A DNA stretch of 38,097 nucleotides from a virus. Lineage: Duplodnaviria; Heunggongvirae; Uroviricota; Caudoviricetes. Every line of letters starts with the position of its first letter. The stretch's first letter is position 1. The position numbers were made by a program, and so were the translations under genes. Below are positions 14,063 through 16,052 of the stretch, in pieces. The notes below the pieces were generated by a model, which was not told the origin of the DNA, did not search any database, and saw nothing but the letters and a program-made list of their open reading frames with translations. The DNA lies in the IMG/VR virus record IMGVR_UViG_2778261087_000005; one strand, given 5' to 3'.

Positions 14063-14175
14063 CGCGTGACCAGATTATGCGGTACCAGGCCGAAAGCGTT
14101 AAGCGCGCCAACCTGCCGCCAGTAGCAAACCACAGCCAGAACAAAACCAACCAGCCACATAAGGAAGCCGCATGA
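14059..14175 (+). CDS. Small ORF (38 aa)
   Basis: Hand-translated; overlaps both neighbours; low confidence. Confidence 0.25.
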   Translation: MTRDQIMRYQAESVKRANLPPVANHSQNKTNQPHKEAA

Positions 14176-14861
14176 ACAGTCAGCAACTGGAATACGTACG
14201 TCAGCAGCTCATTGTGGCGACCGCAGATCTGAGCGGGGCGACGAAAGGGCAGCTGGTAGCTTTTGCCGAGAATGCGCAATTCACCGCGACGGCGCGCAGC
14301 CGGGGCCGGAAAAAGGTATTCGACAAGGATAAGCAGCGCATGGTCAACCCGGATGGTCCGCCGATGAGCGGCAGCCAGTCACGCGCTAAGGGCTCGTCTA
14401 TCGCGCTGGTCAGCCCTGTGGAGTTTGGTACCGCGTCATGGCGCCGCGCCGTCCTGTCGCTGGAAGAACACCAGAAAGCGTGGCTGCTGTGGAACTACAG
14501 CGAGAATATCCGCTTCGAATACCAGGTGGCGATCACCCAGTGGGCGTGGGCAGAGTTCCGGGAACAGCTCGGCGCGAAGAAGGTGGCCGGCAAGACGATT
14601 GAGCGCCTGAAGAAGCTTATCTGGCTGGCGGCGCAGGACGTCAAAGCGGAGCTGGCGGGTAAGGATGTGTATCAGCATCAGGACCTGGCCGCCCTGTGTG
14701 GCGTTAAGCCGGATAACTGGTGTCATAACTACGCCGATTACTGGCTTGCCATGTGCGCCATCTTTAAGCGGCTTGATGGCGATTCACTCCTCTGTACTGT
14801 GAGAACACGATCACAACAAAAAGCGACTTTTTCGCAGCAGGGTATTGCAAAAGTCAATTAA
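14172..14861 (+). CDS. Putative late-gene antiterminator (Q position)
   Basis: 229-aa ORF as the last early gene before the lysis cassette; SD AAGGAAG; assignment is from position, family not verified. Confidence 0.45.
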   Translation: MNSQQLEYVRQQLIVATADLSGATKGQLVAFAENAQFTATARSRGRKKVFDKDKQRMVNPDGPPMSGSQSRAKGSSIALVSPVEFGTASWRRAVLSLEEHQKAWLLWNYSENIRFEYQVAITQWAWAEFREQLGAKKVAGKTIERLKKLIWLAAQDVKAELAGKDVYQHQDLAALCGVKPDNWCHNYADYWLAMCAIFKRLDGDSLLCTVRTRSQQKATFSQQGIAKVN

Positions 14862-14926
14862 ATAGCATACTTTTCATGTAAATCTGATATCTTCGCCATA
14901 GCTTTGTAGGACGACAAAGAATTAAC

Positions 14927-14958
14927 AGCCTCGCCATCGTGCGGGGCTTTGTTTTTTG
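14927..14958 (+). terminator. Intrinsic terminator about 65 nt downstream of the Q-position gene (tR'-like)
   Basis: 8-bp stem AGCCUCGC/GCGGGGCU with a 6-nt loop, followed by UUGUUUUUUG. Confidence 0.55.
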
Positions 14959-15050
14959 TGCTTTCTGTAAACCAAGTGGGCGTTAAAAGTTAAAAATCAT
15001 TATTTACTTATTTAAAATGTGGCCTCCACTTAAAACAGAGAGACCTCATC

Positions 15051-15290
15051 ATGAAGAATTTCCAGCTTTATGTTGGCGGCACTAACAACATCACCTATCG
15101 TTACGAAATTCATAAGATGGATGATGCTTTTAGTGTTCGGATTTTTAATGTCATCGATAAAGCACACAAAGAAGTGGGGGCTAAACTCCTTCGCTCAGTT
15201 TCATCTCACGACGTAATTGATGAGTGCGTGTCACATTACAAAAGGCAAGCGCAAGGCGTTAAGGGTTTTCTTCGCTGGCTTGGATTGTGA
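15051..15290 (+). CDS. Hypothetical 79-aa protein (AT-rich cargo gene in the Q-holin interval)
   Basis: ATG 15051; AT-rich upstream region with promoter-like hexamers; own terminator downstream; no family recognised. Confidence 0.6.
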   Translation: MKNFQLYVGGTNNITYRYEIHKMDDAFSVRIFNVIDKAHKEVGAKLLRSVSSHDVIDECVSHYKRQAQGVKGFLRWLGL

Positions 15291-15308
15291 AAAAGTATCA
15301 GATTAAAC

Positions 15309-15331
15309 AGGTCGCTTAGGCGGCCTTTTTT
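15309..15331 (+). terminator. Intrinsic terminator
   Basis: AGGUCGC-uuag-GCGGCCU (one G-U pair) followed by UUUUU; near-identical to the terminator at 22737. Confidence 0.7.
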
Positions 15332-15335
15332 GTTT

Positions 15336-15608
15336 CTGCACAACAGGAAAGAGCATTTGCAGGGTTCGACTCCCTGCCGTGGGGTTGTGCCACATGATGC
15401 GAGTAATGAGTGCTCTCTCCGTTGTGGTGTAACTCAATTCCCGCTTGCGGGTTAAATGGGTAAAGTAATGCATCAACTGGCATAGCCAGCAGGGCAGGCA
15501 TGATGCTAATGCTGAACCTGAGTATCGGTTCGAGTCCGATCGCCACACACCAGAACCCACTACCTGGGATCCTTCGGCCAGAGAGCCGACATTGCCTTAC
15601 CCTCATCT
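15336..15608 (+). other. Non-coding late-leader region with two tRNA-like T-arm hairpins
   Basis: CAGGG-TTCGACT-CCCTG (15360-15376) and ATCGG-TTCGAGT-CCGAT (15524-15540) match T-stem/T-loop consensus, but no complementary 5' acceptor strand was found at tRNA distance, so no complete tRNA gene is called. Confidence 0.3.
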
Positions 15609-15609
15609 T

Positions 15610-15632
15610 CCCGGCCTGTCGCCGGGTTTTTT
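15610..15632 (+). terminator. Intrinsic terminator about 100 nt upstream of the holin
   Basis: CCCGGC-cuguc-GCCGGG followed by UUUUUU. Confidence 0.7.
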
Positions 15633-15731
15633 ATTCAGGCCGCAGACAATCAATTCCAGATGCCCCGTAGCTATCGTGTCTGACGGCCTTTTCTCAACTA
15701 CCACACAGCACCCCGGACCCGGAGGTGTGGA

Positions 15732-16052
15732 ATGCAACGTATGAACCCAACAAATGGACACGATCTGCCGTACTGGTGGTCGGCGGCCTTGGGCCTGTTC
15801 TCTTTGCTTAGCCTGCAGGATTACGTGTTTATTATCGGCGCGCTGGTATCGGCGTTCTTCACGATAAAAACCTATTACGCAAAACGGAAAGAAGAGCGTA
15901 AGCGTATGGCTGAGGAAAGGAAACGAACCCAGCTGCTGGAAAACTACTTATCTGATGTAGGTAAAAAACCTCACTCCGATCGTCCGGCTGCCGCCGAGGT
16001 GGTTACGGAGGCAATGCGGAGAATTTCCGGTGGCACAGTTGAAACTGAGTAA
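15732..16052 (+). CDS. Holin, two-TM class (pinholin-like)
   Basis: 106 aa; dual-start-like MQRM; two hydrophobic segments and a basic C-terminus; SD GGAGGTG; immediately upstream of a SAR endolysin. Confidence 0.7.
   Translation: MQRMNPTNGHDLPYWWSAALGLFSLLSLQDYVFIIGALVSAFFTIKTYYAKRKEERKRMAEERKRTQLLENYLSDVGKKPHSDRPAAAEVVTEAMRRISGGTVETE

Follow-up and report, generated by a model that had tools for sequence, protein, structure and literature searches.

What are two hairpins with the consensus of a tRNA T arm doing in a phage late leader that encodes no complete tRNA? The question is raised by the window (the whole stretch of DNA analyzed, 38,097 nt), which is the late-control region of a lambdoid prophage. 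An earlier note on this DNA had offered three answers: degenerate tRNA genes, a tRNA mimic, or an sRNA made from a short constitutive late transcript. Our analysis indicates that the second hairpin is the T arm of a tRNA-shaped RNA, element B, and that the first lies in the variable interior of an adjoining stem-loop, element A.

Gene order across the locus is antiterminator Q, an isrJ-like RNA, a 79-aa open reading frame (ORF), the non-coding stretch with both hairpins, a terminator, holin, lysozyme, and Rz (Table 1). The isrJ-like RNA starts 16 nt past the Q stop codon, and a consensus scan places its own terminator at 14927-14948; we infer that this RNA and its terminator are the counterpart of the lambda PR' 6S leader and tR'. 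The 79-aa ORF, with a promoter-like site upstream (14990-15018), matches PHROG 21608 (E=1e-44), which is annotated as of unknown function. From 15336 to 15640, the DNA is 100% identical in four complete Escherichia coli genomes, none of which has an annotation there.

Table 1. Features of the late leader and consensus fold of element B (positions in the window)
Feature	Positions	Strand	Remarks
Antiterminator Q gene	14172-14861		Pfam PF06323, E=5e-83
isrJ-like short RNA, terminator-ended	14877-14950	+	Rfam RF01393, 54.8 bits (gathering score 37)
Moron-like insert	15051-15331	+	79-aa ORF 15051-15290; own terminator 15309-15331
Element A, late-leader stem-loop	15339-15426	+	arms conserved; 49-nt variable cargo inside
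First T-arm-like hairpin	15359-15377	+	6 bp, G-CAGGG / TTCGACT / CCCTG-C; 5' side of A cargo
Element B, tRNA-shaped RNA, 126 nt	15423-15548	+	95 copies; covariation
B acceptor stem, 7 bp	15423-15429/15541-15547	+	consensus fold
B U8 A9	15430-15431	+	
B D stem, 4 bp (ACUC/GAGU consensus)	15432-15435/15463-15466	+	C.A mismatch in window copy
B hairpin inserted in D loop, 12 nt	15440-15451	+	CCCG-CUUG-CGGG
B D-loop GGG	15458-15460	+	
B linker, 10 nt	15467-15476	+	
B variable hairpin, 4-5 bp	15477-15489	+	loop length and sequence vary
B long arm: 4 bp, 3x3 internal loop, 5 bp	15490-15520	+	consensus fold
B long-arm loop GAUGCUA	15502-15508	+	GAUGCU(A/G) in family
B T arm	15524-15540	+	canonical; three bases between long arm and T arm
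B discriminator C	15548	+	C in 80/91 copies
Trailer, 84 nt	15549-15632	+	ends in intrinsic terminator 15610-15632

Both hairpins are present where the earlier note had placed them, CAGGG-TTCGACT-CCCTG at 15360-15376 and ATCGG-TTCGAGT-CCGAT at 15524-15540. When both strands of the 38-kb window were scanned for a TTCRANY loop on a 5-bp stem whose 5' strand ends in G and whose 3' strand begins with C, these were the only two sites; 300 first-order Markov simulations gave a mean of 0.077 sites per window and reached two sites once. The two bounding terminators were likewise recovered by a consensus scan (15309-15326 and 15610-15626, each plus a T run). ARAGORN called zero tRNA genes in the window, in keeping with the claim that no complete tRNA is present, and no Rfam family matched the region at the gathering score; on 15200-15750 at E<=10, the sole match was a 17-nt T-arm piece of mascRNA. 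The region is non-coding, as the note had held, since ORFs across it are broken by 1- to 2-nt indels between copies.

As two terminators (14927-14948 and 15309-15331) lie between the inferred PR' start, immediately past Q, and the region, expression should need Q antitermination or read-through, and an sRNA made from a short constitutive late transcript is unlikely. The region closes with an 84-nt trailer, which in Enterobacter phage ENT1 and E. coli MLI104K1 also follows tRNA-Thr and in CobraSix follows other inserts. PasA, which is processed and adjoins the holin gene, is also 84 nt long (bioRxiv 10.64898/2026.05.13.724894), and the trailer could be a terminator-ended sRNA of the Hfq type. 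The supposition that lambdoid phages carry tRNAs here is borne out in relatives, where real tRNA genes commonly lie just upstream of B or replace it in the leader (Arg-UCU, Thr, Asn, Gly, Met, Tyr, and Ser), including tRNA-Arg in CobraSix and tRNA-Thr in ENT1.

Element B: family, fold, and genomic contexts

The earlier note had seen that TGTGGTG (15423-15429) can pair with CGCCACA (15541-15547), giving 126 nt when the discriminator at 15548 is included, and had treated this molecule as unlikely. The pairing is there, and the doubt about it was mistaken: the 126 nt are the real unit, a conserved RNA gene. In a BLAST search of phage genomes, 15423-15549 (TGTGGTG to CGCCACAC) matched Cronobacter phage ES2, where the copy sits between the terminase and portal genes, a context other than that of the window; the two copies have compensatory differences in the acceptor stem, the T stem, and an inner hairpin. 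An exact 19-mer of B retrieved 67 IMG/VR viral contigs, and an independent D-loop pattern added copies, some with a different long arm, for a total of >90 by both patterns. A covariance model built from 28 variants recovers 95 copies, 54 of them distinct, at 85 to 158 bits (149.5 bits for the window copy). Copies are 124 to 127 nt long, apart from one 139-nt variant, and differ mostly by 1- to 2-nt indels in loops, which excludes a coding frame; a single truncated copy was found, in L052.

Element B is known from phage and prophage DNA of E. coli, Enterobacter, Cronobacter, Yersinia, and relatives, and a survey that took one genome from each species gave hits in Enterobacter, Silvania, Yersinia, and Atlantibacter. 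Few E. coli strains carry it (4 of 5,426 complete genomes), and among sequenced phage isolates, only ES2 carries it. Rfam 15 holds no B family, the genomes inspected have no annotation of B, and the open full-text literature searched describes neither A nor B nor any tRNA-like RNA at this place. Taken together, these comparisons make it very probable that B is a conserved, uncatalogued family of tRNA-shaped RNAs of about 126 nt.

The consensus fold is supported by covariation. Among the 54 distinct sequences, 98.9% of cells hold standard pairs, and nine pairs are changed on both sides (100 cells with double changes), which represent few independent events, as the copies were pattern-retrieved and are close kin (82-92% mean column identity). 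None of 500 shuffles reaches the covariation score of B, a count that is not a probability, and when partners were slid by 1 to 3 columns as a control, only 28-39% paired (28-40% over all controls of this kind). Covariation is found in four helices: the acceptor stem (1-7/119-125), with 97.6% of cells paired and compensatory changes; the T stem, in which three of five pairs switch; the variable hairpin; and the outer long-arm stem, which occurs as CAGG/CCUG, CGGG/CCCG, CGUG/CACG, and CUGG/CCAG. Pairs of the G.U type are frequent on the + strand (34/54 at acceptor pair 6 and 40/54 in the long arm), which points to selection on the structure of an RNA transcribed in the same sense as the late genes.

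Covariation is absent from the D-loop hairpin, the D stem, and the inner long-arm stem, which thus fit the model but are unproven by it; as the columns concerned are invariant, an alternative D-stem register, ACUCA/UGGGU, is also possible. A G-to-A change in the window copy, found in three copies only, turns one D-stem pair into a C.A mismatch. While the stems drift, the D-loop hairpin, the linker GCAUC, and the long-arm loop GAUGC are invariant in sequence, and GG-UUCGAGU-CC and UGGGUA vary little or not at all among the 54 distinct copies. The linker and the long-arm loop are complementary and may form a pseudoknot: eleven single changes are all wobble-compatible, two cells break the pairing, and there are zero double changes.

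Compared with canonical tRNA (RF00005), B retains the upper half: the acceptor stem, U8, the D stem, a GG-containing D loop (A14, the 12-nt hairpin, and UGGGUA), and a 5-bp T stem with G53-C61 and a UUCGAGU loop, the T arm directly adjoining the acceptor 3' strand. It is also found at a location used by tRNA genes. Unlike canonical tRNA, it is 126 nt long rather than 73 to 95 nt, has a hairpin inserted in the D loop, almost never encodes CCA (1/91 copies), and has an unusual discriminator, C. The anticodon arm is replaced by the linker, the short variable hairpin, and the long conserved arm. No anticodon arm was found in B, its only 7-nt loop, GAUGCUA, having A at 33 and U at 37; lacking U33, B cannot decode.

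Search tools agree with this assessment. ARAGORN called no B copy in 55 B-bearing loci and, across the window and 115 related loci, reported ordinary tRNAs only and never element A or B. RF00005 did not match the window region even at E<=10, nor the other B copies scanned, and at the gathering score, Rfam left A, B, the lambda leader, and the B2 and C-type RNAs described below unmatched in the window and 29 loci. Kinship with tRNA is nevertheless supported by the B covariance model, which gives genuine phage tRNAs 15 to 24 bits, and by the real tRNA genes at the same locus in relatives. Invariant non-tRNA parts together with compensating tRNA-type stems are the reverse of the pattern expected from a pseudogene in decay or from a signal for processing alone, and they indicate that B is a non-decoding tRNA mimic under purifying selection and not a decayed tRNA. 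The mimic proposal of the earlier note therefore holds for the second hairpin; the first lies in the cargo of A.

B occurs in the Q-holin leader (74 copies), 10 nt after the terL stop codon (16 copies), and after a Mu-F-like head gene (one copy); all copies are co-oriented with the late genes and have an intrinsic terminator downstream. In the terL context, the acceptor sequence is another one, UGAGGYG/CRCCUCA, and flanking repeats are missing, with the fold unchanged. In many of the terminase relatives, nothing lies between terL and portal; in others, the gap is filled by small ORFs or another structured RNA, with the same kind of terminator at the end. Three late-operon contexts and a gap that is empty or otherwise filled in relatives argue that B is portable, behaving as what might be called an "RNA moron." A promoter scan of the non-leader contexts gave no full sigma-70 site for B. 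In these contexts, -10-like hexamers that contain the stop codon TAA are seen 5 to 6 nt upstream of B. An account of satellites that integrate into late genes (PMC10111431) describes no relevant site.

Element A, its cargo, and the second socket

In the window as in phage lambda, where it follows directly on the tR' terminator (~44788), element A starts 7 nt past a terminator T run. Its arms in the window are CACAAC-A-GGAAAGAGCA-TTT on the 5' side (15339-15358) and GAG-TGCTCTCTCC-GTTGTG on the 3' side (15408-15426), and all leader-type loci have in common, upstream of B, the arms CACAAC-A-GGWAAGRGCAUUG ... CAGUGCUCUnUCC-GUUGUG. These form a conserved stem of ~19 bp (6 + 10 + 3 bp) with one bulged A and one mismatch, and divergent copies have compensatory changes (AGAUCA/UGAUCU in L015; five changed pairs in L024). 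At least 120 IMG/VR contigs contain the 5' arm pattern. As A is absent from the E. coli K-12 prophage DLP12, published K-12 RNase III maps are of no help.

Different phages carry different sequences between the arms, and >40 unrelated cargo classes of 29 to 140 nt were counted among 180 instances. Seven variants of the window's cargo class were aligned and gave a consensus fold in which the first T-arm-like hairpin covaries at three pairs: 25/35 switches between AU and GC in 3 variants, and 22/38 and 21/39 have changes on both sides. A second small hairpin in this class is kept with different sequences. T-arm-like hairpins are also found in several unrelated cargo classes, and one class contains an 8-nt inversion. 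The first hairpin very probably belongs to a second structured RNA, carried as cargo by the A stem-loop. It is no tRNA remnant that has lost an acceptor strand but a conserved hairpin in a variable cargo. Conservation in related phages, the lack of which the note had listed among the signs against its reading, is seen for both hairpins, which recur and covary.

Directly after A comes a second closing stem, GUUGUGGUG ... CRCCACAAC (GUUGUGCUG ... CAGCACAAC in lambda). In B-bearing phages, this is the B acceptor stem; in other phages, it holds at least 25 other cargos. One of these, "B2," is a 127-nt RNA with its own D and T arms, and another, the "C-type" RNA, has conserved 5' and 3' hairpins and also occurs at the terL-portal site. 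In L127, a real tRNA-Arg directly follows A instead. Sequence comparison thus shows a modular exchange of interiors between conserved closing stems, a cassette-like turnover typical of conflict genes.

Direct repeats of CACAAC flank both slots, and GTTGTG lies between them. As GUUGUG can pair with the upstream or the downstream CACAAC, the base of A and the acceptor of B compete for 15423-15426. In the predicted fold of the A-B precursor, the full A stem is intact and the B acceptor stem does not form.

A candidate mechanism and its rivals

Most likely, A and B are tRNA-scaffolded stable RNAs cut from a Q-dependent late transcript. Both would be transcribed within the Q-antiterminated late transcript, and the long A stem would be an RNase III-type substrate whose cleavage frees the TGTG common to A and the B acceptor strand. 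B would be matured like a tRNA, with RNase P cutting its 5' end, the 3' end trimmed, and CCA possibly added; the tRNA-like frame would be a natural scaffold ensuring proper processing and stability. The scaffold idea stems from the observation that stems vary around fixed interiors and that the same acceptor-like stem closes quite different interiors. We consider tRNA-type processing together with a scaffold role for B to be evenly poised between true and false.

The invariant non-tRNA parts (the D-loop hairpin, the linker, and the long-arm loop) would be the working end of B, binding a partner. B might sequester a host or phage factor that recognizes tRNA, such as a tRNA-targeting defense enzyme or a processing enzyme; alternatively, it might act by base pairing with another RNA. 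A decoy is favored by the retention of the acceptor end, T arm, and elbow with decoding abolished and by the cassette-like turnover of the locus. This step is nonetheless the weakest of the proposed mechanism, and we regard the decoy function as doubtful. As a whole, the explanation that combines the B family, its mimic structure, and the A cargo hairpin with tRNA-type processing, a scaffold, and a binding role is one toward which we incline slightly. Against it weigh the rarity of encoded CCA, the unusual C discriminator, the precursor fold that leaves the B acceptor unformed, and the C.A mismatch of the window copy.

Several other explanations deserve consideration. A and B might be cis-acting processing signals only, the tRNA-like fold (for RNase P) and the long stem (for RNase III) punctuating the late transcript and setting mRNA ends and stability, with the released RNAs inert in trans. 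Such a role accords with the intergenic position of every context within late operons, with the interchangeable interiors of A and slot 2, and with the use of the same sites by real tRNAs. A bulged stem of ~19 bp also resembles RNase III substrates. However, an acceptor/T minihelix would suffice for processing, yet the minihelix stems of B vary freely and the non-tRNA arm, linker, and D-loop hairpin are its most conserved parts; moreover, the terL-portal gap lacks an insert in many relatives, so processing is dispensable there. We judge this account unlikely, taken alone.

We give even less credence to the view that the conserved inverted repeats (CACAAC...GTTGTG...CACAAC and the acceptor-like arms) are DNA-level linkers at module boundaries or recombination sites, which drive cassette exchange, and that RNA structure is incidental. 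Dozens of unrelated cargos between identical arms in two adjacent slots, the CACAAC and GTTGTG repeats around and between these slots, and the 8-nt inversion in one cargo class are all in its favor. On the opposite strand, however, the G.U pairs of the + strand would be A.C mismatches, and terL-context B keeps its fold despite a different acceptor and no flanking repeats. The DNA-level reading may well be true for cargo swapping, which is compatible with an RNA function, and both it and the cis-acting account may be partly true alongside the mechanism that we favor.

Decayed, functionless tRNA pseudogenes or recombination scars of lambdoid tRNA arrays, close to the degenerate tRNA genes of the earlier note, are highly improbable. 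Real tRNA genes at the locus in relatives, T-arm-like hairpins in several unrelated A cargos, and the truncated copy of B would suit such an origin. In opposition, B has 95 copies with almost all pairs kept, four compensating helices, and invariant loops, and it turns up in several host genera and in three genomic settings unrelated to one another; its sequence is best conserved outside the tRNA-like parts, its stems change by compensatory substitutions, and the first hairpin covaries too. Covariation appears to have largely refuted this explanation already.

Finally, the idea that B is an unusual but truly decoding tRNA, for example one whose intron or extra arms are removed or tolerated, appears close to refuted: the acceptor, D, and T arms are complete with conserved tertiary-contact bases, and the long-arm loop contains the pentamer UGCUA (which we take to be U33-G34-C35-U36-A37 of E. 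coli tRNA-Ser(GCU), shifted by one base), but neither ARAGORN nor the Rfam tRNA model calls any scanned copy, a 5-bp stem topped by a 7-nt loop with U33 cannot be drawn, the arm is too long by ~7 layers, a cloverleaf is not restored by any excision, and we know of no short-intron splicing pathway in Enterobacteria.

The late "leader," that of lambda included, is usually regarded as untranslated sequence, but it is packed with conserved, exchangeable structured RNAs. If A and B act in cis only, they define how the late transcript is cut; if they act in trans, they would be a new class of phage-host interaction factor on a ready-made natural tRNA scaffold. A broader and more speculative proposal, which we think rather improbable, is that lambdoid late leaders, again including lambda's, are a two-socket cassette with a tRNA-frame scaffold for swappable RNA effectors and with B as a decoy. 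If true, this would be an RNA counterpart of protein anti-defense islands and a lead to the role of the species 1 and 2 RNAs of phage T4. The question is directly testable, as the RNAs are short, sharply bounded, and present in cultivable lysogens and in Cronobacter phage ES2; the prophage of the window is carried by E. coli GB089, 09-00049, O22:H8 154, and OkiPb01715.

Comparison with known RNAs

Several tRNA mimics are already known, among them tmRNA, Y RNAs, viral 3' ends, and T4 species 1 RNA. The tRNA-like domain of tmRNA resembles B in that the acceptor and T arm are kept and the anticodon arm is replaced by other RNA. Unlike tmRNA, however, B has no tag reading frame and no series of pseudoknots, has a real D stem, and is a third of the size; its pair 3:70 is U-A or A-U, not the G3.U70 of tmRNA, and it has no conserved frame with a stop codon. 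With these defining features absent and ARAGORN, which also finds tmRNA, silent on the window, we rejected a tmRNA identity. Viral tRNA-like 3' ends share the principle of a tRNA frame with B, which lacks their defining features.

The bacterial Y RNA YrlA, whose long stem binds Ro, is similar in outline to element A, with a long bulged basal stem formed from both ends and an apical T-arm-like module; in A, however, the apical module is hypervariable between phages. As for B, its acceptor ends are open, whereas the YrlA acceptor is closed. A YrlA identity was also rejected, as no Rfam Y RNA matches, no rsr gene is nearby, and the neighbors are Q, a small ORF, and lysis genes.

The PR'-proximal moron site between Q and the lysis genes is a hot spot of prophage sRNAs, whose genes have conserved and variable parts, such as AgvB and AsxR (PMC4104026), and the Pas sRNAs come from the same neighborhood (bioRxiv 10.64898/2026.05.13.724894), as does IsrJ. 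The IsrJ, AgvB, and Pas RNAs are short, Hfq-dependent, base-pairing, and terminator-ended, whereas A and B have a tRNA-type architecture, and in the window B, unlike these sRNAs, stops 62 nt short of the next terminator stem. Rfam models of IsrJ-, AgvB-, and Pas-type families do not match A or B.

The closest analogue of B appears to be T4 species 1 RNA (rnaC, 139 nt), which, with species 2 RNA (rnaD, 119 nt), is a stable small RNA at the end of a phage tRNA cluster. Like B, rnaC has a canonical T arm near the 3' end (CCGGG-UUCGAAU-CCCGG) and long hairpins in place of the anticodon region. Unlike B, its predicted fold has no clear 7-bp acceptor stem or D arm, sequence similarity is limited to the T arm, and T4 is virulent and differs in transcription context. 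The B model scores rnaC at 16.5 bits, the level of an ordinary tRNA, and finds nothing significant in rnaD; the likeness is architectural, with no homology shown. To our knowledge, the T4 species 1 and 2 RNAs have no assigned function and have stood unexplained for 50 years.

A further parallel is man-made. Ponchon and Dardel reportedly engineered a tRNA scaffold for recombinant RNA in E. coli, in which the anticodon arm gives way to foreign RNA and the tRNA frame is said to secure processing and to protect the RNA. This laboratory construct offers a model for B, B2, and related cargos, in which phages may use the tRNA frame in the same way.

Phage lambda counterparts of element A and of the stem that follows it

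Element A, the late-leader stem-loop with conserved arms and a variable interior (cargo), is present in phage lambda together with the second closing stem (GTTGTGCTG...CAGCACAAC), which in B-bearing phages forms the acceptor stem of the tRNA-shaped element B. Both lie directly 3' of tR', the terminator of the lambda late promoter PR', in a span without any annotation in the lambda record. The commonest element A cargo exists in two forms, distinguished by an exact 8-nt inversion: GGA-GCGCCAAC-GAA versus GGA-GTTGGCGC-GAA.

Features of the window and of related loci
Feature	Locus	Position	Remarks
isrJ family match (Rfam RF01393)	window	14877-14950	starts 16 nt past Q stop; terminator at its end
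79-aa ORF	window	15051-15290	inserted after isrJ-like RNA, before element A; promoter-like site and own terminator
Trailer, 84 nt	window	15549-15632	terminator at its end
Element A and second closing stem	L230 (lambda)	989-1150	NC_001416 about 44788-44949
Commonest element A cargo, two inversion forms	L006/L016 vs L012/L026		pairs of loci compared
B2	L147	5733-5859 (-)	further copies in L120, L139, L150, L158, L185, L207
C-type RNA, late leader	L136, L140, L132, L130		
C-type RNA, terL-portal gap	L297, L250		immediately past terL stop
Truncated element B	L052	4916-5041 (-)	
Int-alpA RNA match	L049	3782-3848 (-)	
CobraSix gp81	L001	2668-2892 (-)	

Further RNAs and a truncated copy of element B

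A second tRNA-shaped RNA of 127 nt, designated B2, has an acceptor sequence identical to that of element B, with a D arm (GCUC/GAGC) and a T arm (GCCGG-UUCGAUU-CCGGC) of its own. Its interior is unrelated to that of element B, yet the two are nearly equal in length (127 versus 126 nt). The C-type RNAs, a family closed by the stem TGTGGTG/CACCACA, have a variable center flanked by a conserved 5' hairpin, GCGCAGGCTGATGCGC, and a conserved 3' hairpin, GCCGGAGATCAGCRCCGGC. They occur at two sites, the late leaders and the gap between the terminase and portal genes, and returned no match in Rfam. One copy of element B lacks approximately the first 38 nt, the break point falling inside the D loop, and the DNA upstream is unrelated sequence with genes on the opposite strand; this copy reflects either rearranged DNA or the junction of an integration.

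RNA and ORF upstream of element A

Judged by its position behind the antiterminator gene Q, the isrJ-like RNA would be the PR' leader/tR' counterpart of lambda 6S RNA. The same order of Q stop, isrJ match, and terminator is seen again in many related loci (Rfam). In one related locus, an int-alpA RNA match (Rfam, 44.3 bits) immediately adjoins the isrJ match. The product of the 79-aa ORF matches PHROG 21608, categorized there as of unknown function, and no Pfam family; in phage CobraSix, a homologue is located before tRNA-Arg.

The trailer behind element B

The trailer is conserved in related phages, where it lies 3' of real tRNA-Thr genes and of other inserts. In CobraSix, gp81, annotated as a hypothetical protein, overlaps the conserved trailer/terminator region in antisense and is probably a spurious gene call. 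The window trailer could be a small RNA derived from a 3' trailer. PasA of EPEC is described as a processed RNA of 84 nt that adjoins the holin (bioRxiv 10.64898/2026.05.13.724894); the window trailer is likewise 84 nt, a likeness in length drawn from that description.
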